This document shows positions 1,948 to 60,372 of a stretch of DNA of 64,000 nucleotides, one piece after another; position 1 is the first letter of the stretch; each line of letters begins with the position of its first letter. The stretch comes from an uncultured virus (IMG/VR IMGVR_UViG_3300044540_000246) (lineage: Duplodnaviria; Heunggongvirae; Uroviricota; Caudoviricetes): the IMG/VR virus record IMGVR_UViG_3300044540_000246, one strand, 5' to 3'. A program made the position numbers and the translations under genes. The notes under the pieces were generated by a model. The model did no database searches and had not been told where the DNA came from. It worked only from the letters and a program-made list of their open reading frames with translations.

Positions 1948-2181
1948 GCCGGAATCATCGGTCCGCCTCCGCCCGTGAACAGGCCCCTTTACCGGCCCCA
2001 GGCCCGGGAGTGGCGCGACTCCGACGACGACCACAGCAATCCCCGAGCACCGCCACCGCGGGCCAACGCCACGAATGCGGCAGCACGGCCACCCGAGAGG
2101 CCTGCGCGGACGGTCCACGCCTGCGATCTCGCACGTTAGGGCCCGAAGGCGACATCGCCCCTGACTGGAAGGCATCACCGC

Positions 2182-3207
2182 ATGGCAGGCAAGCAAGGCT
2201 TCAACGCCGCCAAGAAGGGCAGCGGCCAGGTCGGCTTCCAGCGGGTCCCCGTCCGCGCGCCGGCAGATCCCGGGAGCGCGCCGGTCCCATTCCCGTACAC
2301 CGCACTACCCAGCCCGGCTGAGCCCGCGACCGGGCTGCCAACGTTCGACGAGCTTCTCACCGAGGAGATGCGCGCCCAATGGGTCCACGAGCGCGCCCTG
2401 GTCATGGAAACCCTTGCCGAGGTCCCCGACACGACCGTCGACGCCTGGTACCTCACCCAGACCGCCGCCGGCCGGACCGAGTTCAACCTCGGCGTCGTCG
2501 CCGGGACCTACACCCAAAGCCAGGCCGGCCAGCTCGCCCAGCTCGCCGAGACGGTCACCAAGGGTCAGGAAGCGGTCCTGCGCCGCGCGGAGACCGTCTC
2601 CGCCGACCGAGTCCTGGACTTCCGCGCCCTCGTTGCCGACGCGCGGGAGAGTCCGTACGTGGCCACGACTCTGCAGAAGAACGCGACCAAGCAGAATATC
2701 CCCGAGAAGGTCGCCCATGCGTTCCTCGCCGACCGGACCGGCCTATCCGTCCTGCGGCTGCGAGACTCCGACACGCGACTGTCGGTCCGGTTCGACGACG
2801 ACGGGGTCGTCGGGGTGAACGTCCCCGCAACATCGGGGCAGTCCAAGGACGCCGACTTCATCATTGTCGTCCCCCGCCGCAACGGGACGACCCACGTCGT
2901 ACTCGCCTCCCACAAGCACGCCCGGGAGGGCGGCGGCCATCAGGATAACCAGAAGGCTGACGCGTTCCGGTTCCTCGCCAATGCTTCCGAAGCGGCGGCC
3001 GCCGGCCGCGACATCCCCGGCCTGGCCGACATAGTTGCCTGCACGATCGGACGGTCCGCCGGCCGGGTGACGTGGGAACCCGCCCTCATTCTCGACGGCC
3101 CGTACTTCGCCGGCGCTGCGGTCTACCCCGACGCGCGCCCGTCGATGCAGTCCCGGTTCGTCGGCAACAGCGAGCAGTTCGCCGCTTGGGTCACTGGCGG
3201 TAGGTAG
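2182..3207 (+). CDS. Putative PD-(D/E)xK restriction endonuclease-like protein
   Basis: KDADF...SHKHAREGGGHQDNQ resembles a type II REase active-site region; convergent with an adjacent MTase. Confidence 0.5.
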   Translation: MAGKQGFNAAKKGSGQVGFQRVPVRAPADPGSAPVPFPYTALPSPAEPATGLPTFDELLTEEMRAQWVHERALVMETLAEVPDTTVDAWYLTQTAAGRTEFNLGVVAGTYTQSQAGQLAQLAETVTKGQEAVLRRAETVSADRVLDFRALVADARESPYVATTLQKNATKQNIPEKVAHAFLADRTGLSVLRLRDSDTRLSVRFDDDGVVGVNVPATSGQSKDADFIIVVPRRNGTTHVVLASHKHAREGGGHQDNQKADAFRFLANASEAAAAGRDIPGLADIVACTIGRSAGRVTWEPALILDGPYFAGAAVYPDARPSMQSRFVGNSEQFAAWVTGGR

Positions 3208-3213
3208 CGGCCC

Positions 3214-4254
3214 TTACGCGGCAGCCGGCACGCCCGAGCCCGCCTCGCCGTGGGCGTGCCCCTCGACCTGGCAGAGGGCGTGGGACAGGATGATGCGCGC
3301 GTTCGCGAAGTCCAGGCGCCGGCGGAACTTCCCGTCCACTCGGACGCCCTTGAACGCAGTTAGGAGCACATCCTGTGTCCGGTCTCGCAGGCCGGCCAGG
3401 ATCGTGTTCGCCGCACCGATGACCGCAGCCGCATCCCGATGGCACAGGCCGTCGACCCGCACTCGCGACACTAGCCGAGCCGAGCTCTTCACCTTCGCGT
3501 CCGGGATCAGGTCCGGGTCGCAGAACCCGATTGTCGGCCCCGTGCTCGAGTCGATCGCTTTCAAGCCGACCTGCCCGTCGATGGCGTTGAACGTCAGCCG
3601 GTCCGCGCACGCGGTCGCTTCCAGTCCGCGTGCCAGGGCCGAGTATGGGCCCAGGGGCGCGCCCTGTCGCCACACCTGGAAGTCGCCGGTGCGCTCCCTG
3701 CCCCACAGGGCCAGGCACGTCGGCATGTCGGTGTCGTCGAACATCACGAACGGCAGCGACACGACCGCCTGCAGTCGATCGCGGAACTTCCCGCTGGTCA
3801 CGAACGACTCCGGGACGATCATCGCGACGTAATCGTGGGCGGCCAGCGCCAGCTCGATGCACGTCAGATACAGGCTCGCGTGGCCGCCGAACATGGCCCT
3901 GTTGACTTTGAGGCCCTTTCGCTTCGCGAAGTGGTAAGACAGGTACGGCGGGTTCGTGATGACGGCCGCGAACCCTGACGGGTAGTCCGCGATCGAGTCG
4001 CGGTGCTCGACCCCGGTCAGGGACGTGTCGATGTCGAATAGCGCCCACCGCGCGTCCAGGCCCGCATCGGCGACCAGCTTGGGGATCTGGCCAGTCCCGG
4101 CGAATGGCTCAGCGATCACCGCGCCGGCCGGCAGCTGCTCGAACCAGGCTCGGAACGGGGCGTAGATGAACGGGTTGCCTTGCGTGTAGAACGACCCGAG
4201 CTCGCGCTGCCGGTCGCCCGCTGTCGTTGTCCCCATCGCGGTCCGGTCCTTCAT
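3214..4254 (-). CDS. N6-adenine DNA methyltransferase
   Basis: GSFYT, EPFAGTG SAM-binding motif, ITNPPY catalytic motif. Confidence 0.85.
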   Translation of the reverse strand: MKDRTAMGTTTAGDRQRELGSFYTQGNPFIYAPFRAWFEQLPAGAVIAEPFAGTGQIPKLVADAGLDARWALFDIDTSLTGVEHRDSIADYPSGFAAVITNPPYLSYHFAKRKGLKVNRAMFGGHASLYLTCIELALAAHDYVAMIVPESFVTSGKFRDRLQAVVSLPFVMFDDTDMPTCLALWGRERTGDFQVWRQGAPLGPYSALARGLEATACADRLTFNAIDGQVGLKAIDSSTGPTIGFCDPDLIPDAKVKSSARLVSRVRVDGLCHRDAAAVIGAANTILAGLRDRTQDVLLTAFKGVRVDGKFRRRLDFANARIILSHALCQVEGHAHGEAGSGVPAAA

Positions 4255-4371
4255 CGCCGTGCCGCGGACTTCGCGGCGCCGGACCTGACATCGGCCCGCG
4301 CGGGGTGACGCACAGCAGCCCGATCGCCCCTCGGTGGTCGGCGCCTGTCGCGGATAGGGGACTGCACCTAG

Positions 4372-22837: not shown

Positions 22838-22911
22838 GACGATGCCATCGGCCCCGGACTGGCCCGCCGGTTAGGGCCCCCTCGCACACCCACCACCGAA
22901 AGGCGCACCCG

Positions 22912-33163: not shown

Positions 33164-33164
33164 C

Positions 33165-33331: not shown

Positions 33332-33404
33332 CCCTCCGTAGCTCAGTTGGCAGAGCAGCCGGCTCTTACCCGGCGGGCCGCAGGTTCAAGTCCTGCCGGA
33401 GGGA
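33332..33404 (+). tRNA. tRNA-Lys(CTT)
   Basis: GCCGG-CTCTTAC-CCGGC. Confidence 0.9.
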
Positions 33405-33445
33405 CCGCCGTCGCGGGCGAGTGCGCTCGCCGATGAAAGACGATC

Positions 33446-33940: not shown

Positions 33941-34010
33941 GAGCGGTCGATAGCTAGTAAGCCAGTTCTCCAGGCTGGCGGCGAGAGTTCGAATCTCGTC
34001 TTGTTGTTCC
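33941..34010 (+). pseudogene. Degenerate tRNA remnant
   Basis: Anticodon-like hairpin CCAGT-TCTCCAG-GCTGG and GAGTTCGAATCTC T-arm; no intact acceptor stem. Confidence 0.45.
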
Positions 34011-34039
34011 ACGCCATCTAGGGCCCCTGGGCGGCGCAT

Positions 34040-34115
34040 GCGGTCGTAGCTCAACTGGTAGAGCGTCGCCTTGCCATGGCGAAGGTTGCGGGTTCGAGTC
34101 CCGTCGACCGCTCCA
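34040..34115 (+). tRNA. tRNA-Gly(GCC)
   Basis: Canonical, loop TTGCCAT, CCA. Confidence 0.95.
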
Positions 34116-34174
34116 CGCCCTCCGCGGCCAAGCGGAGCGGTGACCGGTGCGGGATGCCCCTCGCGCCGCAACAT

Positions 34175-34247
34175 GCGGGCGTAGCTCAGCTGGCAGAGCG
34201 CGACCTTCCCAAGGTCGATGTCGCGAGTTCGACTCTCGTCGCCCGCT
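34175..34247 (+). tRNA. tRNA-Gly(CCC)
   Basis: Canonical, loop TTCCCAA. Confidence 0.95.
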
Positions 34248-34421
34248 CGCCCCGTGGCAGGTATCCGAGCACCTCAAGACCTCGGGATGCGTCACCCCGG
34301 CAGTCACGGGGTCATCAGCGGTCTGATGTAGCCATTGGAGCAGCTCGCCGGGCGGAGTACCGGAAGGAGCGCAGTGAGCGGCCGAGCAGGAGAGAGGGAG
34401 CCGACCTCGAGACCTGCGCAT

Positions 34422-34495
34422 GCCTCGTTAGCTCAACTGGTAGAGCAGGGAACTCATAGTTCACGGGCTTCCGGGTTCAAATCCCGGGCGGGGTA
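34422..34495 (+). tRNA. tRNA-Met/Ile2(CAT)
   Basis: Loop CTCATAG; Met versus lysidine-Ile not resolved by eye. Confidence 0.85.
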
Positions 34496-34554
34496 CGACG
34501 CCGGCAGCAGGGAACAGTCGGAGCGCACGCTCAGGCTCCTGTTGGTGGCGGCAT

Positions 34555-34631
34555 GCCGGGATAGCTCAGCAGGCCAGAGCGTCCCACTCGTAATGGGAAG
34601 GCCGCCGGTTCGACTCCGGCTCTCGGCTCCA
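34555..34631 (+). tRNA. tRNA-Thr(CGT)
   Basis: TCCCA-CTCGTAA-TGGGA, CCA. Confidence 0.93.
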
Positions 34632-34728
34632 CCCGACGCGCACCCAGGGTGCTGCGTCGGCCACTCTGACCCCACCGTCCGGTCGGAGGTTTCACCACCG
34701 CACGCACCACCGCGGGAGGACGGCACAC

Positions 34729-34811
34729 GTCGATGTGGCGGAATGGCAGACGCGCCAGCTTGAGGTGCTGGTATCTGAAAGGGTGTGAGAGTTCAAATCT
34801 CTCCTTCGACA
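34729..34811 (+). tRNA. tRNA-Leu(GAG)
   Basis: CCAGC-TTGAGGT-GCTGG, class II. Confidence 0.92.
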
Positions 34812-34840
34812 CGTAACACGCTCCGGCCAACGCCGGTATC

Positions 34841-34913
34841 GCCTCCGTAGCTCAGCTGGCAGAGCAGCTGACTTTTAATCAGCGGGTCGCAGGTTCGAAA
34901 CCTGCCGGGGGCA
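34841..34913 (+). tRNA. tRNA-Lys(TTT)
   Basis: GCTGA-CTTTTAA-TCAGC. Confidence 0.95.
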
Positions 34914-34961
34914 CCCCGAACCGATATAGCAACAGCCACGCGCACGGAAGAGAGCTAGTAG

Positions 34962-35126
34962 ATGACATCAGCCAGCCAATACGCCAGCGCTGCGCGGCCG
35001 CGGAAAGTAGCACGATTGACGTTGGCTGATGTTGCGCAGATCGTGTTGATGTTCGCTTTCGACCTCGCCGTCGCCGCCGGATTGTTTGCCGGCCTGGCTG
35101 TCATCGTCGCTACGGTTCTCCCGTGA
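34962..35126 (+). CDS. Small membrane protein inside tRNA array
   Basis: 54-aa ORF with hydrophobic C-half; GTGA overlap with next ORF. Confidence 0.5.
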   Translation: MTSASQYASAARPRKVARLTLADVAQIVLMFAFDLAVAAGLFAGLAVIVATVLP

Positions 35127-35326
35127 CCGGTCCTCGCATCGACGGCCGCACCAAGCACCTCATCTACTGCGAAGATTTCCACGATGCGGCGCGCGTAGCC
35201 GGCGCGATGGACCTGCACCTGAGCGCCTGGTGCTGGATCACCGACGTGAACGCACCCGCCGACCCGGTCGTGTTCACCCGCAACCCGAACCCGACAGCTG
35301 CGGCAGACACCACACTTCCCGCGTAG
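35123..35326 (+). CDS. Small hypothetical protein inside tRNA array
   Basis: 67-aa ORF coupled to the previous one. Confidence 0.55.
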   Translation: MTGPRIDGRTKHLIYCEDFHDAARVAGAMDLHLSAWCWITDVNAPADPVVFTRNPNPTAAADTTLPA

Positions 35327-35344
35327 CACCGCGCGGGACCCCTT

Positions 35345-35430
35345 GGAGAGTGAACCGGGCAGGGTCCCGGGACCGCCTCGAAAGCGGATCGAGCCGGCGA
35401 CGGTTTGGGTTTCGAGTACCTCGCTCTCCG
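35345..35430 (+). tRNA. tRNA-Ser(CGA), 8/4 type
   Basis: 8-bp acceptor GGAGAGTG/CGCTCTCC, 4-bp T-stem, long variable arm. Confidence 0.88.
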
Positions 35431-35437
35431 CGCACCG

Positions 35438-35526
35438 GGAGGATGAACCGACCAGGCGGTCGGGGCCGCCTTGAAAGCGGATCGAGCCGGCAACGGCTTG
35501 GGTTTCGAGTACTCCATCCTCCGCCA
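35438..35526 (+). tRNA. tRNA-Ser(TGA), 8/4 type
   Basis: GGAGGATG/CATCCTCC; loop CTTGAAA; GCCA. Confidence 0.88.
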
Positions 35527-35546
35527 CACCACAGCATCATCCCTTT

Positions 35547-35636
35547 GGAGAGTGAACCGGCCGGGGCGCCGGGCACGCCTGGAAAGCGTTGCGGACCCCA
35601 CGCGGGTCTGGGATTCGAGCTCCTCGCTCTCCGCCA
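35547..35636 (+). tRNA. tRNA-Ser(GGA), 8/4 type
   Basis: Loop CTGGAAA; GCCA. Confidence 0.88.
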
Positions 35637-35651
35637 CAGCATCATCCCTTT

Positions 35652-35738
35652 GGAGAGTGAACCGGCCAGGGTGCCGGCGCTCGTTGCTAGCGAGATGGGT
35701 CCTCCGGGACTGGGTTTCGACTACTCCGCTCTCCACCA
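35652..35738 (+). tRNA. tRNA-Ser(GCT), 8/4 type
   Basis: Loop TTGCTAG; ACCA end. Confidence 0.85.
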
Positions 35739-35836
35739 TGCACGTAGGGCAGGTAGCACGTTCGACTCGTGCGCGGGGGCGGTCCCCTAGACTGGCGGCA
35801 GCCGACCCTGGGAGTTCGACTCTCCAACGTGCAGCA
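35739..35836 (+). ncRNA. tRNA-like RNA with two T-arms and no canonical anticodon arm
   Basis: TGCACGT/ACGTGCA closing stem; GCACG-TTCGACT-CGTGC and GGAG-TTCGACT-CTCC. Confidence 0.55.
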
Positions 35837-35850
35837 GAACCTGGCTCAGC

Positions 35851-36046
35851 TCCCGTAGTGCCAGACGGGACGAGAGTCGCGCGGGCGCGAAGGCACTCCG
35901 CCGCGGTGCGATGCAGCACACCGACCAGCTGCACTGAGGTCGGCGGTCACCTTCCCGAGGCCGGGGAGATGACGCAGGAACACGGCAGTACCCGGCACGA
36001 GTGATGCATCTTCGGACTGCTCAACCCGGCAACCCCGACCGGCCTC
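35851..36046 (+). ncRNA. Candidate structured RNA with three tandem H-type pseudoknots
   Basis: Three stem-loops whose loops have perfect 6-nt downstream complements. Confidence 0.55.
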
Positions 36047-36050
36047 ACTT

Positions 36051-36122
36051 GCCTCGTTAGCTCAGCGGAAGAGCGTCCGGCTTCTAACCGGCGGGCCGCT
36101 GGTTCGACTCCAGCACGGGGCG
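36051..36122 (+). tRNA. tRNA-Arg(TCT)
   Basis: Loop CTTCTAA. Confidence 0.9.
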
Positions 36123-36157
36123 CTGACCGCCAAACGCCATGGGGCGGGCAACAGAAT

Positions 36158-36237
36158 GCGAGCGTATACCCTCACGCTGATAACGTGTCGAAAGGTTAGC
36201 TGGTGGCACGTGAGTTCGAATCTCACCGCTCGCACCA
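36158..36237 (+). tRNA. tRNA-Ile(GAT)-like, rearranged (no 5' D-arm, long segment after anticodon arm)
   Basis: GCGAGCG/CGCTCGC-ACCA; CACG-CTGATAA-CGTG; GTGAG-TTCGAAT-CTCAC. Confidence 0.7.
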
Positions 36238-36361
36238 CTCCGCAGATCCAGCAGTCAGACCACAGCCCCAGCGGAAGGGCAGCATGCAGTGGAGGTCTGA
36301 CCCCTGCGGTGGGCAGGGTCGCGCCAGGGCTCGGCGACAATCGGGCTCCCCACCACCTCAC

Positions 36362-36429
36362 GGGCTGCGCGCAGGGCGCGGGCCTCCCTTGCACGGAGGC
36401 CTTGAAGGGTTCGAGTCCCTTGCGGTCCA
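36362..36429 (+). tRNA. tRNA-Ala(TGC), short D-arm
   Basis: G3:U70 acceptor GGGCTGC/GCGGTCC; CCTCC-CTTGCAC-GGAGG. Confidence 0.7.
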
Positions 36430-36433
36430 CTCC

Positions 36434-36506
36434 GCCCGTGTAGCTCAGCGGAAGAGCTCCCGCCTCCTACGCGGGGAACGCCCCCGTTCGAACCGGGGCA
36501 CGGGCT
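36434..36506 (+). tRNA. tRNA-Arg(CCT)
   Basis: CCCGC-CTCCTAC-GCGGG. Confidence 0.88.
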
Positions 36507-36588
36507 CGAAAGTCGTCATGTCCGCTGCGGAGAAGTCGCCCTCCAGGTCTCGATGAATGCCGGTGCGAACAGGTATCCTGCACGGACG

Positions 36589-37575
36589 ATGATCCGTCAC
36601 CTGCCCACCCTTGCCGCACTGCTCGTCGCAGCCGTGCTGGCTTCTGCCGTGCCCGCGAACGCCGCCGGCGACAGCGGCAGCCGAGAGGGCGATGGCCGTG
36701 AGGGTCGCCCCAGCCCGCTCCTGCCCGGGTGGGCGCTGGACAGCATCGACGGGGCACTCGACGGCCGCTACGTGCTCGACCCGGCTTCGGCCGGGCAGGG
36801 CGTCGCCGTGTACGTCATCGACACCGGCGTCGACGCCAGCAGCACACAGCTCGCCAGACGGGTCTCGGGAGGGGTCTCGCTGCTTCCCGGCTCGGTCGGG
36901 ACGGGCGACTGTAACGGGCACGGCACCCGTGTCGCGCAGGCGATCGCAGGAACTACCGTCGGTGTAGCCCCGGCCGCGACCATCATCCCGGTCCGTGCGT
37001 TCGACTGCGCCGGCCGCGGCGACGGCGCCGGCATCGCGCCCGCCCTGAACTGGATCGTCGACCATCACCCTCCCGGTGAGCCCGGCGTGATCAACGTGTC
37101 CGCCGGCGGGTGGGCCGACCCGACCACCGACGCCGCTGCGCTCGCGGCGGTCCGCGCGGGGCTGGTCGTCGTCGTATCCGCCGGGAACACCGGCGGGGAC
37201 GCGTGCGACCGATCCCCTGCTCGCGTCCCCGCAGTCATTACTGTCGCCGCCGCTACGCCAGCAGGCGCTTACGCCGACTCCGCGACCGGCCGGTGCGTCG
37301 ACCTGTGGGCGCCGGGCGCGTCAGTCATCACCACGACCGACGCCGGCTACCGGCTTAGCTCCGGAACCAGTCTCGCGGCTGCATTCGTTGCAGGCGCGGC
37401 AGCTCGCTACCTGTCGGCGGACCCGGCGGCCTCCCCTGCCGACGTCGGCCGATGGCTGACCGACCAGGCGACGGCAGCGAGCGGGCCGACGGTCCCCGGC
37501 ACCGTCACTGCGACGCTGCAGCTCCCGGCAACGATCGCGCCCGTCCGCCACGACGTGCCCCGCGCTCGAATGTAG
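36589..37575 (+). CDS. Secreted S8 subtilisin-like serine protease
   Basis: Signal peptide; VIDTGV, NGHGT, SAGN, SGTSLA triad motifs. Confidence 0.92.
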   Translation: MIRHLPTLAALLVAAVLASAVPANAAGDSGSREGDGREGRPSPLLPGWALDSIDGALDGRYVLDPASAGQGVAVYVIDTGVDASSTQLARRVSGGVSLLPGSVGTGDCNGHGTRVAQAIAGTTVGVAPAATIIPVRAFDCAGRGDGAGIAPALNWIVDHHPPGEPGVINVSAGGWADPTTDAAALAAVRAGLVVVVSAGNTGGDACDRSPARVPAVITVAAATPAGAYADSATGRCVDLWAPGASVITTTDAGYRLSSGTSLAAAFVAGAAARYLSADPAASPADVGRWLTDQATAASGPTVPGTVTATLQLPATIAPVRHDVPRARM

Positions 37576-37703
37576 CGGCGCCTGCCGAGCGCGTCACGGG
37601 CATGCGACGCAGTGGCGGCGGCACAACTTCCGTCAGCCGATGTCGGCTCTGAGCAATAAAGTGAACCTGTACGCGCTTCGCGCGTCGGAACAGAAGAAGG
37701 ACC

Positions 37704-38585
37704 ATGAACGACACGCGCACCGCACTCCTCCCCACTGAGGCTATGCCGCGTCGTGTCGCGTTCGCCGGCGACTGGCACGGCAACACCATGTGGGCGCTCC
37801 ACTGCCTGCGCGAGCTCGCCGCCGCCGGCATTGACCGCATCTACCATGTCGGCGACTTCGGCCTGTGGCCCGGCGAGTCCGGCGCAGCATTCCTCCGCAA
37901 GGTCGACGCGCACGCCACCCGCTACGGCATCACCATCGACGTCACCCTCGGCAACCACGACGACTACGACCGGTTCGCGCAGCTTCGCGCCGACGAGGAC
38001 GGCTGGCTGCGAACCAAGCACACCCCCGCACTCCGGTTCGCTCCCCGCGGCCACACATGGGAGGACCACGGAGTCCGGTTCGCGTCCCTCGGCGGCGCCG
38101 GCAGCATCGACCGGAACCTCCGCACCGCCGGCCGCGACTGGTGGCCCGACGAAGCGATCGGTCGCGACGACGTCCGGACCCTCGCCGCCAACGTGACTGC
38201 GCGAGGCTGGGACCGAGTCGACGTCCTCATCACCCACGAAGCACCCGCCGGCCTGACCCGCCGCGGGTTCGCCGTCATGCCCCGCTGGGCAACCCCCGAC
38301 GTTCAGCAGTACTGCTGGGAGCAACGAGTCCGACTCCGCCACGCAACCGACCTGGTGATGCCGCACACCCTCGTCCACGGCCACTGGCACGAATGGCACC
38401 ACGACGAGCTCCACGGTGTCGGCCCCGGCGACTCAGGCGCAGAGTACGTCACCGACGTGTTCTCCCTGTCCGCCGACGGCGACGTCCGCAACCTCATCAC
38501 CGCTGAGCTCATCCCGTACGTCGGCGTGACCGACCCGCAGCTGCCGCTCATCTCGAGCGGCCGCGCCGCCCGCCGAACCGCATGA
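37704..38585 (+). CDS. Calcineurin-like metallophosphoesterase
   Basis: GDWHG, VGDFG, GNHD, THEAP, HGHWH. Confidence 0.92.
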   Translation: MNDTRTALLPTEAMPRRVAFAGDWHGNTMWALHCLRELAAAGIDRIYHVGDFGLWPGESGAAFLRKVDAHATRYGITIDVTLGNHDDYDRFAQLRADEDGWLRTKHTPALRFAPRGHTWEDHGVRFASLGGAGSIDRNLRTAGRDWWPDEAIGRDDVRTLAANVTARGWDRVDVLITHEAPAGLTRRGFAVMPRWATPDVQQYCWEQRVRLRHATDLVMPHTLVHGHWHEWHHDELHGVGPGDSGAEYVTDVFSLSADGDVRNLITAELIPYVGVTDPQLPLISSGRAARRTA

Positions 38586-39085
38586 CGACCGGCCAAACGG
38601 GCAGCGCCGACCGCCTCATGGACCTCGTCTGCGGCAGCGACCCCGCCGACCTTGCCGTCGTCGTCCAACGCGGTGACCTGCGGACCGAGCACCTCGAAGC
38701 CCTCGCCGAACGCATCGTGTCTACCTGGGCCACGGTCGACGCCACCGAAGGCGCCTACATCTGGCTCGCCGGCAGCCGGCTCACCCAACGCGGGAGCCTA
38801 CCCCCAGCCGCCATCGAGACCCTCGCCCGGCACCCCGACCCGAGCATCCGCGCCCGCATCGCCGACCGACCCGACCTGCCGGGAGCGCTCGCTCGCCAGC
38901 TCGCAGGCGACGACGACCCGAAGGTCGCCCGCTACATCGCCAACAACGCCGCCGTCGCCGAAGAGATCCGCATCCTCGCCGCCCTAAACGCAGCCAGCGG
39001 CGACAGACCCCGAGCCGGGACGCCATCAGGGGCACCTGCAACGCCGAGGCGCGCGCACCCACAGCCGACCGGAAATCAACCATGA
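38582..39085 (+). CDS. LRV/HEAT-like repeat protein
   Basis: LARHPDPSIRARIA, IANNAAVAEEIRILAAL. Confidence 0.7.
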   Translation: MTTGQTGSADRLMDLVCGSDPADLAVVVQRGDLRTEHLEALAERIVSTWATVDATEGAYIWLAGSRLTQRGSLPPAAIETLARHPDPSIRARIADRPDLPGALARQLAGDDDPKVARYIANNAAVAEEIRILAALNAASGDRPRAGTPSGAPATPRRAHPQPTGNQP

Positions 39086-39201
39086 CCATCAACCATGACC
39101 CGGATGACGCCCGCAACCTCATAGCCGCCGTACTCATCCCCTACGTCGGCGTGACCAACCCGCGGCCGCCCCTCCTCGCCCCTCCCGCGAAAGATCGATA
39201 G
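39082..39201 (+). pseudogene. Duplicated C-terminal fragment of the metallophosphoesterase gene
   Basis: DDARNLIAAVLIPYVGVTNPRPPL matches GDVRNLITAELIPYVGVTDPQLPL (about 38478-38550). Confidence 0.65.
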
Positions 39202-39203
39202 GC

Positions 39204-39659
39204 ATGCTCCGCCGCGCGCTCGACGCCCTACTCGCCCGCCCGCCCGCAGAGCAGGAGGGGGACTGGCTGTCGCCCCTCATCCGAACGGCGCCCTTCGCCG
39301 ACCTGGTTGAATGCGCCAACCGGGACGACCTCGAGCCCCACCACTACATCCTGCTCGCCGAGCGTTTCGCGACCCAACGAGCCGAAAGCGAAACGGAGAC
39401 CTACGAGGGCTGGTACTTCGCGATGCTGCTCCTCGACGACCCGAAGACCCCCGAAGAAGCGCTCCGCACCATCGCCAAGCGCGCCGACAGCACCCTCCTG
39501 CTCATGCTCGCCGGACGGAACGACATCCCCGACGACCTCGCCCTCGAGCTCGCCGCGCACCCCCTCTACGCCATCCCGGCCGCGATCGTCGCGAACCCGG
39601 CAACCAGCGACGACGCACGAACCATCGCCACCCTCAACCTCGGCGCCAACCAAACGTAA
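39204..39659 (+). CDS. LRV/HEAT-like repeat protein, paralog of 38582-39085
   Basis: DLEPHH..LAER; IVANPATSDDARTIATL. Confidence 0.7.
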   Translation: MLRRALDALLARPPAEQEGDWLSPLIRTAPFADLVECANRDDLEPHHYILLAERFATQRAESETETYEGWYFAMLLLDDPKTPEEALRTIAKRADSTLLLMLAGRNDIPDDLALELAAHPLYAIPAAIVANPATSDDARTIATLNLGANQT

Positions 39660-39925
39660 GAGCACATGAGGGCAGGTCCCCAGCAGAAAGCCACTCGGGG
39701 CACCACAGCGTTCGCCGACCGCATCGAGACGGAAGCGCGCGCCAACGACGCCGGCAAGAACTCCAGCCAGATGCGCCGCGCGCCGAACATGCGAAGCTGA
39801 TACCGGACATGACCGAGCGCCTCACCGAAGCGACCCCGGCCGCCACCAACCCAGCCCTCGGACGTGCCAACTCAACCCAGCTGCGCACGTCCGACGACAC
39901 GGCCTAAACTCGCAGGAACACAAGC

Positions 39926-40205
39926 CGTACAGGTGTGCTATACTCGTACCAGAGGCGAATGTGACGGGCCACCCGCAACAGACGCCGATAGAGCACCAGC
40001 ACATCAGCACCCCGAACCGCAGGAAAGGAGAACCGAGATGACCGAACGCTACGCCCACGTCATCCCGGCCTTCGTCGATCCTGCGCACGAGTGGCCCTAC
40101 TCGGCCGTCCCGAACGGGAGCTGCATGTGAAAGCCTGACCACCAGGCTCACCATGAAGCCGCCTCGCACGGGACCACACCCCGAGCAGGCGGCTTCAGTC
40201 GTTTC
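39926..40205 (+). promoter_or_regulatory. tRNA block 2 leader: promoter, 30-aa leader ORF (40038-40130), terminator hairpin (40154-40197)
   Basis: CGTACAGG-N5-TATACT; AAAGGAG RBS; TGAAGCCGCCT...AGGCGGCTTCA-GTCGTTT. Confidence 0.7.
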
Positions 40206-40226
40206 CGGACCACAACACAACAACGA

Positions 40227-40311
40227 ATGGGCGTCGCGTAGCGGCTATCGCAGCGGTCTCCAAAACCGCCGACCTAGGTCACCGTGGGTTCGAGTCCCAC
40301 CGCCCATGCCA
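40227..40311 (+). tRNA. tRNA-Trp(CCA) with long variable arm
   Basis: GCGGT-CTCCAAA-ACCGC; variable GACC-TA-GGTC; GCCA. Confidence 0.85.
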
Positions 40312-40336
40312 CACAACTAAACACGCACCACCACCC

Positions 40337-40413
40337 GCCGTGAGCGCTGGGACGCAAGGGAGGCTGTAACCCTCTCCCCACTGGGTAGACGAGTTCGATT
40401 CTCGGGCACGGCA
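40337..40413 (+). tRNA. tRNA-Tyr(GTA), short atypical D-arm
   Basis: GGAGG-CTGTAAC-CCTCT; variable arm; GAGTTCGATTCTC. Confidence 0.65.
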
Positions 40414-40434
40414 CGCACCACAACACAACACCGA

Positions 40435-40509
40435 CTGGCTGTAGCTCAGAGGAAGAGCGCCCACCTTGGGAGTGGGAGGCCCCCGACTCGAACTCGGGCA
40501 GCCGGACCA
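40435..40509 (+). tRNA. tRNA-Pro(TGG)
   Basis: CCCAC-CTTGGGA-GTGGG; atypical T-loop CTCGAAC. Confidence 0.82.
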
Positions 40510-40538
40510 CCCCCGAATGGGACATAACTCAACAACGA

Positions 40539-40612
40539 CTGGCTGTAGCTCAGCAGGAAGAGCGCTAGCTCGGGGAGCTAGAGGCCCGGCGGTTCGAGCC
40601 CGCCCAGCCAGA
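40539..40612 (+). tRNA. tRNA-Pro(GGG)
   Basis: CTAGC-TCGGGGA-GCTAG. Confidence 0.88.
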
Positions 40613-40645
40613 CGCACCACCAACAACTCAACACGCACCACATGA

Positions 40646-40721
40646 CCGGGTGTGGGGAAGCTTGGCCATCCCGCCTGCCTCGGACGCAGGAGTATCGCAG
40701 GTTCAAATCCTGCCATCCGGA
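40646..40721 (+). tRNA. tRNA-Pro(CGG)
   Basis: CCTGC-CTCGGAC-GCAGG. Confidence 0.9.
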
Positions 40722-40762
40722 CTCAACAACTCAACAATGAATAGCGCGCAACGCGCACGCAT

Positions 40763-40840
40763 GGTGGCCGTAGCTCAGATGGTTAGAGCGTCCGACTGTG
40801 ACTCGGAAGGTCGCGAGTTCGAGCCTCGTCGGTCACCCCA
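40763..40840 (+). tRNA. tRNA-His(GTG)
   Basis: G-1:C73, loop CTGTGAC, CCA. Confidence 0.95.
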
Positions 40841-40841
40841 T

Positions 40842-40914
40842 GCCCCCATCGTTTAGAGGCCAAGGACACCGCCCTTTCACGGCGGCGGCGCCGGTTCGAA
40901 TCCGGCTGGGGGTA
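40842..40914 (+). tRNA. tRNA-Glu(TTC)
   Basis: CCGCC-CTTTCAC-GGCGG. Confidence 0.93.
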
Positions 40915-40939
40915 CGAACAACTCAATAGTGAATGTCTT

Positions 40940-41013
40940 GGTCCCGTGGAGCAGTTGGAGTGCTCGCCACCCTGTCACGGTGGAGGTCGCCGGTTCGAGT
41001 CCGGTCGGGATCG
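40940..41013 (+). tRNA. tRNA-Asp(GTC)
   Basis: CCACC-CTGTCAC-GGTGG. Confidence 0.95.
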
Positions 41014-41044
41014 CAAGGCTCTTGGCAGGCGTGCTGGGAGCTCA

Positions 41045-41228
41045 GAGCAGAGACGCAAGGACGGTGGTCGCGCGACCGTCCGGCTCCTCCGGGGGTCGTG
41101 GTGTAAGGCGCTGGTCGAGGACGACGCATCCTCGGCCTGGCGGCACGGCGCCTCTGTTCGAAACCAAATTCTCAGGTAGGTGTGAGTAGAGATGCATTCC
41201 TGAGAAAGCGGGCGGTGGCTACTCACAC
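41045..41228 (+). ncRNA. Candidate structured RNA: multibranch domain plus strong pseudoknot
   Basis: GAGCAGAGACGC/GCGCCTCTGTTC closing helix; TTCTCAGG/CCTGAGAA crossed with GTGTGAGTAG/CTACTCACAC. Confidence 0.6.
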
Positions 41229-41242
41229 GCGGTTCGCGCTTT

Positions 41243-41313
41243 GGTTCGTTAGCTCAGCGGTAGAGCGCTCCCCCGTCAAGGGAGAGGTCGCGGGTTCGAG
41301 CCCCGTACGGATC
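41243..41313 (+). tRNA. tRNA-Asp(GTC), second divergent copy (C at position 33)
   Basis: CTCCC-CCGTCAA-GGGAG. Confidence 0.85.
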
Positions 41314-41397
41314 GCGCTCCATCCCGGCTGCGGATAGTGGGCGTGTCTCAGTTTCGAGGCGCGCCAGAAGGAGGGATGACTCTCGCGCAGCCGCTTT

Positions 41398-41474
41398 GCC
41401 CCCTTGGTCTAGTGGTCTACGACGCCCGGTTCTCAGCCGGGAGGTCACCGGTTCAAATCCGGTAGGGGGTACCA
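41398..41474 (+). tRNA. tRNA-Glu(CTC)
   Basis: CCCGG-TTCTCAG-CCGGG, CCA. Confidence 0.92.
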
Positions 41475-43386: not shown

Positions 43387-43540
43387 GACCAGTCGTATCG
43401 GGGCCCTGCACGCCTCGTAGAGCGCCTGGCGCGCTCGCCCCCGCCTCAGCCCCGCGACGCCGCCGAAGGTCCGTTAGAGCATCGTCAGCGGCCCGCCAGA
43501 GCCGCATCCAGCCCCTCCGACAACAGGAAGCAGGCCATCC

Positions 43541-44116
43541 ATGGGCGCGACCCGCCACATCCAAGGCCCGGACGGGAAGATGGCCGGCTCGATCGGCGCC
43601 GGCAAGGACGGGGCACCCGTCTCGATGGACACGGCGGTTCTGCGCCACGTTCTGGACACCAGCGGCCTGAACCGCCGCGCCGCGGTCACCCTCAACGAGC
43701 TATATGAAGCCTACGTGGCGGAGGAAGCCCGGGTCGCCGTTCTCGAAGCCGCCCGAGCTGCCGAATCCGAGGCTGCTGAACGCGCCCGAACCGGGAGGGA
43801 AGCATTCTGGGCTGCGTTCACGCCCACACCCGGCACCCGCATCCCGCCGACGTACGAGTCCCACGAGCACTTGCCGATCGGGACAATCGTCAAGCTCGTC
43901 GAAGCAAACGCGGACAAGTACTGGAACGGAACCGCCCATGTGAAGACCGGCCCGTCGACGTGGGGCCTGCTCGCCCGGGGGCGTGTCGACGAGCTGCTTG
44001 ACGGCGACGTTGAAGACGCCATGGGGTTGGTCGCCCGCCGGGTAAACAATGTCTCCCCGTGCCCGTCCCGCCGGGACGGCGAATGGCAGATCCTCGCAGT
44101 CGTCCCCGAGCGCTGA
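43541..44116 (+). CDS. Hypothetical protein with N-terminal GKMAGS peptide
   Basis: 191-aa ORF, AGGAAG RBS region. Confidence 0.7.
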   Translation: MGATRHIQGPDGKMAGSIGAGKDGAPVSMDTAVLRHVLDTSGLNRRAAVTLNELYEAYVAEEARVAVLEAARAAESEAAERARTGREAFWAAFTPTPGTRIPPTYESHEHLPIGTIVKLVEANADKYWNGTAHVKTGPSTWGLLARGRVDELLDGDVEDAMGLVARRVNNVSPCPSRRDGEWQILAVVPER

Positions 44117-48626: not shown

Positions 48627-48649
48627 CCAACGCCGTTAGGCATGCCCGC

Positions 48650-48889
48650 ATGCCAGCTAAGCGCAATGCCAAAGGCCAGTTCACGGCCAACCCGTCCGGG
48701 GCGAAGACCACCCCGGCGGCGAACAGGCGCGCGCCCGTGGAATTCACCCCGACCGCGAACCCCGCCTACGCCGAAGGGATGCGCCAGCTGCGCTCCTCCG
48801 GCGCCGCGGGCGCACACCTCGACGGGCGTCAGCGGCGCGCTCGCACCCGTTCTGCGGCGCTCAGCCGGGCGTTGCGCGAACAGAACTGA
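48650..48889 (+). CDS. Small basic protein with N-terminal RNAKGQF peptide
   Basis: 79 aa; LRSSGAAGAH...RTRSA. Confidence 0.65.
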   Translation: MPAKRNAKGQFTANPSGAKTTPAANRRAPVEFTPTANPAYAEGMRQLRSSGAAGAHLDGRQRRARTRSAALSRALREQN

Positions 48890-52624: not shown

Positions 52625-54970
52625 TCAGGCGGCGTTCGCGACCACGACCTGCCGGCGGGCGAAGATCAGCGACGCGTCACCGTCCGCACCTACCGCGTCG
52701 ACAACTACGGATGACCCCGGCCCGTACTCCCCCGACAGGATCCGGTCAGCGAGCTGGTCCTCGAGCTCACGCTGGATAACCCGGCGCAACGGACGCGCAC
52801 CCATCACCGGGTCGTAGCCGACCGCGGCGAGGTGCAGCTTCGCCGCGGTGCTTACTTCCAGCGTGACACCACGGTCCGCGAGACGCTCAGCGAGCGAGGC
52901 CAGGAACAGATCCACGATCTCGGTGACCTGCTCCTGTGTCAGCGGGCTGAACACGACGACCTCGTCGATGCGGTTGAGGAACTCCGGACGGAACGAGACC
53001 TTTAGGTCCGCATCCACCTTCGCCCGCATCCGCTCATAGTCGGCCACGTCGTCGCCAGCAGCGGCGAAGCCGACCGGGACGCCGCGGGACAGGTCTCTCG
53101 ACCCCAGGTTCGTCGTCATGATCACGACGGTGTTCTTGAAGTCGACGACCCGGCCCGCCGAGTCCGTCAGCCGGCCCTCGTCGAAGACCTGCAGGAGCGC
53201 GTTGAACACGTCCGGGTGGGCCTTCTCGATCTCGTCGAGGAGGACGACGCTGAAAGGCCGCCGGCGGACTTTCTCCGTCAGCTGGCCTCCTTCCTCGAAG
53301 CCGACGTAGCCGGGAGGAGCGCCGAACAGCCGAGCAACGGTGTGCTTCTCCCCATACTCGCTCATGTCGACGGCAATGAGGGCGTCGTCTGACCCGAACA
53401 GCTGCTCGGCCAGCGCCTTCGCCAGCTCTGTCTTTCCGACCCCGGTCGGCCCGGCGAAGATGAATGAGCCCGTCGGACGTTTCGGGTCTTTGAGTCCGGA
53501 CCGGGACCGCCGGATCGCGCGAGCGAGCGCCGACACGGCCTGCTGCTGCCCGATCACGCGCCCGTGCAGCTCGTCCTCGAGTGCGAGCAGACGCAGCGAC
53601 TCCGCCTCGGTCATCTGCGCGACCGGGACGCCGGTCGCCTCAGCTAGGACTGCTGCGACATCGCCAGCGCCGAGCTCGACCGGGGTCCCGTCCGACGCGG
53701 CGAGCGCAGCGCGCGCGGCCGCCTCGTCAAGCAGGTCGAACGCCTTGTCGGGCAGGAAACGGTCGGAGATGTAGCGGTCGGAGAGCCGGACCGCGGCCTC
53801 GATCGCGTTGTCGGAGATCCGCAGCTCGTGGTGCTCCTCGTACGCGCGGCGCAGCCCCGAAAGGATCGCGACGGACTCTTCAACCGTCGGCGGGGCGACC
53901 TTCACTGGCTGGAAGCGCCGTTCGAGCGCGGCGTCCTTCTCGATGTACTTGCGGTACTCAGCCAGAGTCGTGGCCCCGACCGCGCGAAGCTGGCCGCGGG
54001 CGAGCAGCGGCTTGAGGATGTTCGCTGCGTCCATCTGACCCTCCTGGCCGCCGGCGCCGACGAGGGTGTGAAGCTCGTCGATGAACACGATTGCGGCAGG
54101 GTGAGTGAGCAGCTCGGCGACGACCTTCTTGAGCCGCTCCTCGAAGTCTCCGCGGAACCGGGTCCCGGCGACCATCGCAGCGAGGTCGAGCGCGAACACC
54201 TCCGCCTTCGCGAGCTTCGTCGGCACCTGTCCGGCGACGATACGCTGAGCGAGCCCTTCGACGATCGCCGTCTTCCCGACGCCGGGCTCCCCGACCAGGA
54301 CCGGGTTGTTCTTCGTCCGCCGAACCAGGGTGCGGATCACCCGGTCGAGGACGTCGTCACGGCCGATCACGGGGTCGAGCTCGCCGGCCTTCGCGCGCGC
54401 GGTCAGGTTCGTCGCGTACTGCTCAAGCATCGATTTCGTCCCCGACGGCCGCTGCTGGCGGGCGGGGCGCGCGGCTGCGGTCCGCTCCTCGGACTGGCCG
54501 GCTGGAAGGGTCTCCCCGTGAGCGGCCGCGCCGCTGCGCTCAGCGAGCACTCGAAGCGTGGCCTCCCGGACCGCGCCCGCGTCGACGCCCCACGCGGTGA
54601 GGAGCTGGCGCACTAGGCCGTCCGGGTCGCGAAGCAGCCCAAGGAGGAGGTGCTCGGTCCCGATATAGCCGTGCCCGAGGCCGAGAGCCTCACGCAGCGA
54701 AAGCTCGAGGATCTTCTTCGCCCGAGGGGTGAACGGGCGGGCATCTTCGCCGGTCGCCTCGCCGGGGCCGATCAGTTCGGCGACGGCTTCAAGCGCCGCC
54801 GTGTGCGTGATGTCGCACTGGGCGAGGGCGGCGCCGGCGACCGAGTCCGGGTCGTTCAGAAGGCCGAGGAATAGATGTTCGGTTCCGATGTATTCGTGCC
54901 CGAGCGCTCGTGCGCTCTCCTGTGCGGCGACGATGACGGACCGGGCGGAGTCAGTGAAGCGCTCGAACAA
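52625..54970 (-). CDS. clpC: Clp protease ATPase (ClpC-like N-domain, no middle coiled-coil)
   Basis: (M)[37 protein letters not shown] start after GAAAGG. Confidence 0.93.
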
Positions 54971-55121
54971 GTCGGACCAGCCTTTCGTTCCTGCGGCCAT
55001 ATGCGCAGCCGCGACGGCCCCCCTATCGGGGCCGACCCCCGTTCGACGGCGGGTCGGAAACGCCGATGCCAGCCTCGTGACAGCCCCGGATCGTGTTCAG
55101 AATCCAGCCGGTCGCGCAGCG

Positions 55122-58921: not shown

Positions 58922-59040
58922 GACCCCAATCTACGGGGGACCTCCGACACTCGGATGCCTGTAAATCGTTGGGCTGTAAGGGGTTTCGGCCCCACCCTCC
59001 CCCTGGGCTGATATTTGCTCAGTTCTGGCCTGGCGGCCGT

Positions 59041-59787
59041 TCACCGACCCGGAGCCGGCGCGGCGGGCTCCCCGAAGCGGGCGTTGAGATCCCGCAGCAT
59101 CGCCGCGATCAGACGCAGGTCCTCAGCCACGTCACCCTCCCGTCTGCCGCCTTCACTATCTGAGATCGTCCAACGACCCTGCTCGAGCCGGTGCGCGCAC
59201 GCCTCGAAGAACCGCGCCGTGTACGCCGACGCCGCCTGCGGCACCGACGCGAACGGACCGCGCACCTCGACCGGGCCGCTCTGCCCGCGGAGCGTCAACG
59301 TCTCCTCCCCCTTCGCCGGCGCCGTAACAGCGAGCAGCGTGGACAGGCGCCCCGTGTAGCCCGCAGTGAGCAGCGTCGCGTGCAACGCCCAACGGTCGGC
59401 GCTGTTCGCGAACGCGACCGTCGAACACATCACCAGCGTGTGCGCCACCATCGTCGCGACCGCGACCGGCAGCGGAATTCGGTTCTCGTGCTCCCACGGA
59501 TCCGAACCCGGCCGCTCCTCCGCGATGCCCAGCAGCAGCTCCGCAACCACCCCGTCCGCATGCTCATCCATCCGCCCTTCGGAGGCAGCGATGAACTCTT
59601 CCAGCGAGGTGAATCCGGACGCGCGCGCGGTGCGCGCGACCCACTTCGTGATCGCGCCGACGGCATCGCCCGCCGGGTAGAACACGTCCCAGTCCCGCAA
59701 CCGTTCGTCGACGAGGTCGTTCAGGTCGGAGACGAACCGGGCCTGCGGGCTGAGGTACTCGCGGCGGGCGCTGCTCTGAGTCGTCAT
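59041..59787 (-). CDS. Hypothetical protein
   Basis: ORF from MTTQSSARR. Confidence 0.7.
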   Translation of the reverse strand: MTTQSSARREYLSPQARFVSDLNDLVDERLRDWDVFYPAGDAVGAITKWVARTARASGFTSLEEFIAASEGRMDEHADGVVAELLLGIAEERPGSDPWEHENRIPLPVAVATMVAHTLVMCSTVAFANSADRWALHATLLTAGYTGRLSTLLAVTAPAKGEETLTLRGQSGPVEVRGPFASVPQAASAYTARFFEACAHRLEQGRWTISDSEGGRREGDVAEDLRLIAAMLRDLNARFGEPAAPAPGR

Positions 59788-59871
59788 GCCCTCATCCATA
59801 GGCGCGCCCGCACCTCCACCCGCCCCCGTTAGGTACCTCGCCGACCCGGAACGCGGCAGCGGAGGTGACCC

Positions 59872-60372
59872 ATGGGGACAGCTGAGCGTCTCCGCGACGA
59901 GCGGACCGGCCAGTTCCGCGGGTCCCGCGCCGGCGCGGGAGGGCTCCCGCTGGCCCCGTCCCCGGCACCGCTCCTGTTCCCGTCCGCGCCGCAGGCCGCC
60001 TCGCCCGGCATTGAGCTCCCAGCCCTGGACGACACCGCCAGGGTTCAGGGCCTGCGCACGCTCCTGAAGGCCGAGCATCCCGGACTGGTTCTTGACCTGA
60101 GCGGGCCCGACCGGGGCGGTTTCGTCACCCTGTCGCTCATCTCGGTCCCCCGCACCCTGCGCGGCACAGGTGTTGCGACCGCCGTCATGGGCCGGCTGAC
60201 GGCCGAAGCGGACCGGCACGGCTGGACTCTCGCTCTCAGCCCGGACTCGTCGTTCGGGTCGTCGAAGGCGCGCCTGGTCGGCTTCTACGGCCGGTTCGGG
60301 TTCACCCCGAACCGGGGTGGCACTCGCGACTTCGCCACCCGCGAAACGATGATCCGACGCCCTTCTCGGTGA
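59872..60372 (+). CDS. GNAT-family acetyltransferase with N-terminal TGQFRGS peptide
   Basis: VPRTLRGTGVAT AcCoA motif, LVGFYGRFGF; GGAGG RBS. Confidence 0.8.
   Translation: MGTAERLRDERTGQFRGSRAGAGGLPLAPSPAPLLFPSAPQAASPGIELPALDDTARVQGLRTLLKAEHPGLVLDLSGPDRGGFVTLSLISVPRTLRGTGVATAVMGRLTAEADRHGWTLALSPDSSFGSSKARLVGFYGRFGFTPNRGGTRDFATRETMIRRPSR

Follow-up and report, generated by a model that had tools for sequence, protein, structure and literature searches.

Five genes in one stretch of viral DNA encode unrelated proteins that begin with a similar short peptide, and the same short DNA word precedes each of them. The question raised by this locus is whether the peptide is a true tag, whether tag and word belong together, and what such a tag would be for. 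The genes lie in a 64,000-nt stretch (the window, to which the observations refer unless another source is named) of the uncultured Caudoviricetes virus record IMGVR_UViG_3300044540_000246. An initial annotation had proposed an N-terminal targeting peptide and a dedicated upstream motif, (C/G)GTTAG(G/A). The analysis has revealed that the peptide is a real, portable, disordered N-terminal tag, and that the tagged genes use their own one-base variant of a more general upstream word.

The five genes, their peptides and the (C/G)GTTAG(G/A) sites ahead of them were all found in place (Table 1). All five starts are ATG codons (2182, 22912, 43541, 48650 and 59872), with purine-rich runs upstream that resemble ribosome-binding sites (RBS). 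The tag corresponds to LRHARTGRFAGSLPG in the CCA-adding enzyme (residues 8-22, nt 22933-22977), where it is followed by a Pro/Ala linker, to LRDERTGQFRGSRAG in the GNAT-fold protein (residues 7-21, nt 59890-59934), to IQGPDGKMAGSIGAG in the protein g43541 (residues 7-21, nt 43559-43603), in which Met occupies the hydrophobic position, and to KRNAKGQFTANPSG in g48650 (residues 4-17, nt 48659-48700). A search of all six frames of the window with G-[RKQ]-[FM]-x-[GA]-[SN] yielded four matches, at residues 9-19 of these four open reading frames (ORFs); the pattern was taken from the initial annotation itself, and it is its specificity that counts and not the number of matches. The claim of a peptide shared by five proteins therefore stands strictly for four, the fifth (2182; 'GQV', 'GKQGF') fitting only loosely. 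The window dialect of the tag can be written [RK]-x-x-[TDKS]-G-[RKQ]-[FML]-x-[GA]-[SN]-x-x-G, with the hydrophobic residue at a distance of 11-17 residues from the start; a variable linker and then an unrelated enzyme domain come after the tag. The folds behind it are indeed unrelated: a CCA/HD enzyme, a GNAT, a family with a distant Tsp45I-like link and two proteins of no known family. Directly after g48650, a membrane protein with two hydrophobic stretches, as judged by eye (48917-49249, plus strand), begins M-N-G-K-P-P-G-A-G-Q-V, a possible degenerate tag with Val as in 2182.

Table 1. Tagged genes, upstream words and context features of the window (T-variant, word with T before TAG; RBS, ribosome-binding site)
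Feature	Position	Strand	Remarks
T-variant word CGTTAGG	2134..2140	+	41 nt ahead of ATG
341-residue protein, distant link to Tsp45I-like restriction enzyme	2182..3207	+	N-terminus loosely tag-like: KKGSGQVGFQ, nt 2212-2241
T-variant word GGTTAGG	22869..22875	+	36 nt ahead of CCA-enzyme ATG
CCA-adding/HD enzyme, 560 residues	22912..24594	+	Pfam PolyA_pol and HD; NCBIfam CCA models
tRNA array, 35 genes in two blocks	30886..41474	+	context defining the kind of element
T-variant word CGTTAGA	43472..43478	+	62 nt ahead of ATG
191-residue protein g43541	43541..44116	+	no family or fold match
T-variant word CGTTAGG	48634..48640	+	9 nt ahead of ATG
79-residue basic protein g48650, weak coding signal	48650..48889	+	no known family
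ClpC-like unfoldase, two Clp_N repeats	52628..55000	-	Pfam; sole Clp_N domain protein in window; weak candidate reader
T-variant word CGTTAGG	59827..59833	+	38 nt ahead of start; GGAGGTG RBS
GNAT-fold protein, 166 residues	59872..60372	+	fold match

Conservation of the tag was analyzed in a set of 119 homologs of the CCA enzyme (45-58% identical), with an anchor pattern applied to the first 70 residues. The pattern was found in 56 of the 119, and 52 were kept after removal of 4 by eye. Three dialects were distinguished in this family: T-G-[RK]-F-A-G-S, which is the window type and is also present in P0002; R-Q-P-[KR]-G-[IV]-P-x-G-G-[QE]-[FY]-A...H-x-E; and H-P-E-[VI]-R-x-D-x-N-G-[KN]-[FL]-V. 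Dialects other than that of the window are present on both homologous and non-homologous proteins of giant actinobacterial plasmid-like elements with tRNA arrays. Among the relatives of the GNAT-fold protein, the closest one (P0122, 64% identical) retains the tag with Leu for Phe, and the more distant P0123 and P0124 have no tag. The sole relative of g43541 (P0126) is 51% identical overall, yet 20 of the first 26 residues are kept, as counted from the alignment. In the 2182 family, P0129 (37% identical) opens with a canonical window-type tag, and the other 35 of the 36 listed relatives have none, as judged by eye. Linkers diverge among homologs whereas the tag is conserved. A second portable N-terminal module, M-C-Q-S-K-x-x-G-G-x-R-C, replaces the G-[RKQ]-F tag in three members of the CCA family (P0016, P0025 and P0056) and in two of the 2182 family (P0137 and P0147), two families that thus swap N-terminal modules.

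It had been considered that the real starts could lie downstream of the peptide. The tag is regarded here as translated because of the RBS-like purine runs before the starts and the conservation in homologs. In AlphaFold models the predicted local distance difference test (pLDDT) was below 50 for residues 1-49 of the GNAT-fold protein and 1-27 of g43541, each of these segments being followed by a folded core, and the tag is thus predicted to be intrinsically disordered. Structure comparison matched the GNAT fold to GCN5, AcrVA5 and TacT chains; the fold search with g43541 gave no match at E ≤0.001.

A Sec or Tat signal was considered and rejected for the tag. The maximum 12-residue Kyte-Doolittle mean in the five N-termini ranged from -0.04 to 1.20, versus 2.65 and 2.68 in two true signal peptides that the window encodes, which is not the hydrophobic core of such a signal, and no twin arginine was present in their first 25 residues. 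A related explanation is that the SecA homolog encoded by the element (45448-47973, plus strand), a protein with all five Pfam domains that is only 42-45% identical to actinobacterial SecA, reads the tag as an export signal. Its gene, which is complete, lies between g43541, 1.3 kb upstream of it, and g48650, 0.7 kb downstream of it, and the tags are N-terminal and basic. Nevertheless, the five N-termini lack the features just mentioned, and no SecA was found on the two tag-rich megaplasmid contigs searched (described below), so that this explanation is considered extremely improbable.

Searches with profiles were little informative for a motif of this size. Pfam gave no family for the five 50-residue N-termini at E values up to 10, and no N-terminal family for seven tagged or variant homologs at E values up to 5. 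A hidden Markov model (HMM) of the peptide, suggested in the initial annotation as a way to scan for further members and built from 52 N-termini of the CCA family, failed to separate real from reversed window ORFs (top scores 5.4 and 6.1, respectively); HMMER is ill-suited to so short a motif, and regular expressions were used instead. Related loci were also collected (3 viral, 80 metagenome and 80 genome contigs), mostly of ≤46% identity, except L086 and L118 at 47%. In the 83 distant viral and metagenome loci the general tag pattern was not enriched at N-termini (33 of 651 N-termini versus 350 of 4125 internal windows). Two viral copies of the CCA enzyme (L001 and L003) and the L086 copy start without a tag, as judged by eye. 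A pattern scan of viral contigs with the GNAT-fold protein gave 46 pattern matches with no relative among them, and a tblastn search of phages with a tagged 292-residue protein from a related genomic island gave no match.

The upstream DNA word was then considered in relation to gene starts. SGTTAGR (S, C or G; R, A or G) is not enriched in the window as a whole, with 13 sites versus 11.3 expected, a number reached by 34 of 100 shuffles. The upstream test set consisted of 52 gene starts with 80 nt upstream, from our own gene list, which leaves out ORFs with a poor pattern of G+C at third codon positions or overlapping tRNA genes, and two window-edge genes. GTTAG occurs within 80 nt upstream of 5 of the 52 starts, which are exactly the five named genes, and it is the sole 5-mer common to the four strict-tag genes and present before at most one other gene (2182). 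Such an exclusive shared 5-mer was found in 38 of 20000 random sets of four genes. The exclusivity claimed for the motif holds for GTTAG and does not hold for a wider word, as [GCA]ATAG[GA] is located ≤100 nt upstream of nine other genes. When the 15 upstream [AT]TAG[GA] sites were considered together, T-TAG was found at the five tagged genes and A-TAG at the ten others, which are those of the nine other genes and a second site of the tagged gene 59872. Since sites at tagged and untagged genes differ at this single base before TAG, GTTAG is not a dedicated motif and is better described as a one-base variant of a general promoter-like word of the element, [GC]ATAGG. Pairs of sites differing in one base are CCGTTAGAGCA (43472) and CCGATAGAGCA (27366 and 39986), as well as CGTTAGGCATGC (48634) and CGATAGGCATGC (39196).

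The distribution of the four possible words is in agreement with this relationship: the upstream share of the window copies was 10 of 43 for ATAGR, 5 of 26 for TTAGR, 6 of 155 for GTAGR and 1 of 31 for CTAGR, that is, an upstream enrichment of about 5-6-fold for ATAGR and TTAGR and none for GTAGR and CTAGR. In a k-mer screen of all upstream regions GTTAGG and CGTTAG ranked at the top, CCGATA and GCCGAT came after them, and ATAGG had a high rank as a 5-mer. Promoters of extracytoplasmic function (ECF) sigma factors have a conserved -35 element (GGAAC-like) located 16-18 nt upstream of a CGT/GTT -10 element. No shared -35 was seen by eye in the five upstream regions, whose alignment shows no likeness beyond the word, and the ECF-type promoter suggested earlier was not retained. 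At the 48634 site TAGGCA ends 7 nt ahead of the ATG, a leaderless-like geometry. A sixth T-variant, GGTTAGG (33274-33280, plus strand), lies in the spacer between tRNA-Gly (33165-33240) and tRNA-Lys (33332-33406), with no protein gene after it. GTTAG is absent upstream of the tagged CCA copy in locus L166, so the DNA word is lineage-specific.

The second lineage was found in G247:C2, a 426,858-bp megaplasmid contig whose length and gene coordinates agree with those of NC_011879.1 (pACHL01 of Pseudarthrobacter chlorophenolicus A6). The pattern GG[QE][FYW] occurs 74 times in its six frames; 48 of these occurrences are within 25 residues after a Met and open an ORF of ≥60 residues, and 45 are full tags. 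These 45 tags are near-identical and belong to a 30-residue dialect, M-x(4-6)-R-Q-P-[KRQ]-G-[IV]-P-x-G-G-Q-F-A-x-T-x-H-x-E-P. The heptamer CGCACAC is present at 210 sites, versus about 94 expected from base composition, and 130 of them are ≤40 nt from an ORF start. The start-associated word of this contig is CCGCACACA, and tagged genes have A or G in place of the following T. Of the genes preceded by CGCACAC plus A-T, 93 are untagged and 4 tagged; of those preceded by CGCACAC plus A-A, A-C or A-G, 16 are tagged and 5 untagged. The same split of word variants was obtained in four related islands (15+1 versus 7+1), counts that are inflated by orthologs and correspond, by our own count, to about 4 tagged and about 8 untagged families. 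With one mismatch or none, the word was found at 29 of the 45 tagged genes. Therefore, in a second lineage, with another tag dialect and another word, a one-base variant is once more peculiar to the tagged genes, and the proposal that the tagged genes form a cis-regulatory class was borne out by the T-variant word in the window and by a separate word variant in the megaplasmid. In addition, CCGCACAC occurs in 186 copies on G247:C2, and its distance to the ATG is exactly 0 nt (46 untagged genes) or 9 nt (29 untagged genes and 17 of 22 tagged genes), with a second conserved block, cGgggA, ending 15 nt upstream of it. The arrangement resembles a promoter specific to the element that would yield leaderless or near-leaderless mRNAs.

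These results bear on the simplest objection, namely that there is no shared function, the peptides being chance look-alikes among Gly/Arg-rich N-termini of high-GC genes and GTTAG an ordinary promoter variant. The lack of window-wide enrichment of SGTTAGR, the loose fifth peptide, the failure of the HMM built from the CCA tags and the absence of N-terminal enrichment in the 83 distant loci are what chance would give. However, the tag is kept in homologs while linkers diverge, 45 near-identical 30-residue tags are present on a single plasmid contig, and the association with a promoter variant is found in two lineages; chance is therefore regarded as very improbable.

The initial annotation had raised the objection that chromosomal homologs might carry the same N-terminus, and the result in this respect was divided. 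The CCA family is patchy, being present in 2 of 151 genomes sampled from the family to which G001 belongs and in 16 of 301 from its genus. Tagged Arthrobacter-like CCA copies lie on megaplasmid records of about 400 kb or on islands beside other tagged genes. The L086 copy (from G001), untagged as said above, has ABC-transporter and other ordinary-looking ORFs as neighbours. In seven further CCA copies the match to the query begins only at about residue 31-35. The islands with tagged copies include genes for a sigma-70/HA fusion, dUTPase, Thg1, BaxI, a methylase and other tagged proteins, and a tagged island protein matches five plasmid records of 375-440 kb from Pseudarthrobacter, Paenarthrobacter and Arthrobacter. 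The places where tagged and untagged CCA homologs sit thus favour the tag idea.

The kind of protein that carries the tag was examined by a Pfam scan (E ≤0.001) of 44 tagged proteins of G247:C2, the 45th (the CCA enzyme) being left out because it spans two pieces. A match was obtained for 7 of the 44. The domains were Fic, NAD-dependent DNA ligase, DUF2958 (twice) and DUF7007, with a ParB-like nuclease and LPD29 below the cutoff. In the window, the GNAT core aligns with positions 2688-2797 of a PHROG profile 3925 positions long; it is homologous to a module found in the DarB-like antirestriction/PLxRFG proteins (3,696 and 3,868 residues) of three phages. About 20 tagged genes of NC_011879.1 are arranged in one run (201-228 kb, minus strand) that ends near parA, downstream of, and in the same orientation as, FtsK/SpoIIIE and type IV coupling-protein genes. 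Four stand-alone Clp N-terminal-domain genes are also located upstream of this run.

The explanation that we favour, with a probability of about 0.4 for the whole, is that the tag is an address label written in a dialect, read by a shared partner, and borne by a jointly regulated set of proteins that travels with mobile DNA. The tag would be a docking label for one partner, changing with the dialect of each lineage; a reader that co-evolves with the label is proposed because the tag is uniform within an element and changed between elements. The label would mark jointly regulated nucleic-acid enzymes and conflict-type effectors (CCA enzyme, GNAT and nuclease-like proteins in the window; DNA ligase, Fic and DUF2958 in the relative), which may travel or act with the mobile DNA. 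The likeliest route would be hand-over to the transfer or packaging machinery, with entry into the next cell together with the DNA. This route is favoured because of the type of cargo, the proximity of transfer genes to the main cluster in the relative and the precedent of P1 DarB, although hand-over to that machinery itself is put forward only tentatively, at well below even odds. In its most specific and slightly more doubtful form, tag and promoter variant would define a regulon of about 45 co-expressed proteins, handed by the N-terminal label to a coupling protein or an FtsK-like ATPase, perhaps through the stand-alone Clp_N adaptors, and entering the recipient with the DNA.

The closest precedents are the capsid-targeting systems of phages T4 and P1. 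According to passages of PMC9024508, the T4 capsid targeting sequence (CTS) and that of P1 DarB are, like the tag, short N-terminal peptides on otherwise unrelated cargo, the cargo being also of the anti-host or early-effector kind, and 30 N-terminal residues of DarB suffice to direct a reporter into the capsid. A signal of the T4 type belongs to a phage in which capsid, scaffold and prohead protease read it and cut it. The homology of the window GNAT core to a module of DarB-like giant proteins adds to the likeness. Nevertheless, the same passages report no consensus for the P1 Dar N-termini, and the tag has a clear consensus with lineage dialects. Capsid genes, present in those phages, were not seen among the window ORFs scanned (58 with Pfam and 28 with PHROGs), and the best-sampled carriers of the tag are megaplasmid contigs and not phages.

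The tagged set also resembles the polyvalent or escort proteins, with which it shares GNAT and, on the tagged megaplasmid proteins, Fic, ParB-like nuclease, LPD29 and DUF2958, as far as the sections of Iyer et al. 2017 (PMC5512222) considered here describe them. In those sections a polyvalent protein consists of 2 to 15 effector domains fused in one polypeptide, whereas each tagged protein is one enzyme unit (CCA and HD forming a single enzyme, and the GNAT a single domain) with its own tag and promoter word. The tag peptide is not mentioned in the passages of that article on motifs, peptides, cleavage and linkers.

As to the DNA word, a parallel exists in the start-associated sequence (SAS) of Cluster K mycobacteriophages, described in the relevant part of Pope et al. 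2011 (PMC3203893) as a 13-bp word located 3-7 bp upstream of the start and overlapping the ribosome-binding site. Both are short asymmetric words repeated ahead of numerous non-structural genes within a single actinobacterial mobile element, and GATAGG, which forms the core of the general word of the window, is part of the published 13-mer. The words of the window are located 6-78 nt from the starts, in contrast to 3-7 nt, and only the GATAGG core is common; G247:C2 is more SAS-like in the fixed distance of 0 or 9 nt between word and ATG. The part of PMC3203893 considered here mentions no protein tag in connection with SAS variants. The fourth system to be compared is type IV secretion and conjugation, in which, as with the tag, an unstructured terminal signal is found on diverse effectors, and a coupling-protein gene is close to the main tagged cluster of NC_011879.1.

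Several observations weigh against the address-label explanation and its transfer route. Known type IV signals are C-terminal or internal, usually C-terminal, and the tag is N-terminal. Neither capsid, portal, terminase, prohead protease, relaxase or coupling-protein genes nor other transfer genes were seen among the scanned ORFs of the window, whose 64 kb belong to a contig of ≥124 kb, and PLSDB types all five matching megaplasmids as non-mobilizable. Forty-five tagged proteins, including a DNA ligase and a CCA enzyme, are a large and odd list of cargo, and no tag was seen ahead of the GNAT-like module in two DarB-like giant proteins read. On the side of regulation, the window test rests on 4-5 genes and a self-made gene list, the word-variant rule of G247:C2 is not absolute (the 4 tagged genes with T and 5 untagged genes without it), the island counts are inflated as indicated above, and no word was found at 16 of the 45 tagged genes of G247:C2, although many of these 16 follow RBS-like purine runs, as inside operons, when inspected by eye.

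Two other functions can be considered for a real tag. One is that of a stability tag, in which the peptide would dock on Clp N-terminal domains (of the ClpC-like unfoldase of the element, of the stand-alone Clp_N proteins or of host ClpC), keeping harmful enzymes short-lived or releasing them at a set time. The ClpC-like protein of the window has, besides its two Clp_N repeats, a P-V-G-F motif at what we take to be the position of the ClpP-docking loop of ClpC, and the A-variant word CCCGATAGGG is located 26 nt upstream of its gene. Each of the two megaplasmid contigs searched (G247:C2 and G251:C2, neither with a plasmid SecA) gave four Clp_N matches; those of NC_011879.1 are annotated as stand-alone Clp N-terminal-domain genes, and two of those in G251:C2 are stop-interrupted. 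Clp_N is also among the only 8 of 54 window proteins matched on G247:C2. A disordered, basic peptide with one hydrophobic anchor and a cargo including Fic, GNAT and nuclease-like proteins would suit such a role. By contrast, known actinobacterial Clp degrons are mostly C-terminal, and the link between Clp_N and tag is co-occurrence in three elements and nothing more. A stability tag is considered unlikely. The ClpC-like protein has a short stretch between its two ATPase modules, with no long middle domain when the sequence is read by eye.

The second function would be docking at a hub, the tag tethering enzymes of the element to a replication, partition or nucleoid structure without any transfer. 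A DNA ligase and the CCA enzyme are among the tagged proteins, both elements encode their own Pol III alpha, and dialects that are uniform within an element and different between lineages are those expected for a co-evolving hub. On the other hand, the tag does not resemble known clamp-binding motifs, many tagged proteins are conflict-type modules and not parts of a replisome, and no candidate for the hub was found. Docking of this kind seems to us quite doubtful, and the address label remains the preferred explanation.

The window derives from a large tRNA-rich actinobacterial mobile element, phage or plasmid, as indicated by its gene set and by its overlap with G247:C2, a contig with 41 tRNA genes and a tmRNA gene on which 8 of 54 window proteins are matched. 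The matches were to dUTPase, CCA enzyme, HNH, Clp_N, Pol III alpha, metallophosphatase, EEP nuclease and a membrane protein. The G+C content along the window is 62-72%, and the protein of its CCA enzyme has been recorded on a contig as long as 124,169 bp. The DNA runs in which this stretch occurs are labelled as freshwater metagenomes, and no RNA run with it is listed. Besides the tRNA array, the Pfam and PHROG scans revealed an RNA-repair set (RNA ligase, PNKP and RlaP), dUTPase, S-adenosylmethionine synthetase, SecA, RNase HII, RecX, DUF4192, the ClpC-like ATPase, the C-terminal part of Pol III alpha, three DNA methylases and HNH nucleases. For the PNKP, matches were to 2153 phage records versus 3 plasmid records, and this protein is accordingly phage-like. 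In the array of G247:C2, 40 tRNA genes and the tmRNA gene (tag peptide ANATRSDLALAA) are grouped together (L190, 7520-16918; 27.5-37 kb), the remaining tRNA gene being near the end of the contig. The sole virion-like match in the window is a secreted 197-residue protein with a signal peptide (25367-25957, plus strand), whose C-terminal part matches PHROGs of virion structural protein and minor tail protein. A 707-residue protein whose N-terminus has a methylation motif like that of type IV pilins is encoded in a stretch of lower G+C, 62-64% (27433-29553, plus strand), and the A-variant word CCGATAGAGCA is located 67 nt upstream of its gene.

Literature searches, which covered neither supplements nor most papers in subscription journals, and Pfam gave no description of the tag. 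The single-base rule for promoter variants, in two lineages with different words, is new, and so is the identification of the pACHL01 record sharing coordinates with the contig of 45 tags, with its neighbourhood of Clp_N and coupling-protein genes. P. chlorophenolicus A6 is a cultivable and harmless soil bacterium, and ordinary experiments would be possible with the host of pACHL01. If the address-label explanation is correct, it would show by what means actinobacterial mobile elements of very large size sort an entire class of enzymes, and would provide a simple sequence rule for the proteins that accompany DNA into a new cell. If the tagged regulon is in fact handed to the transfer machinery, the tag would be the first N-terminal, sequence-defined signal for protein transfer in Actinobacteria.

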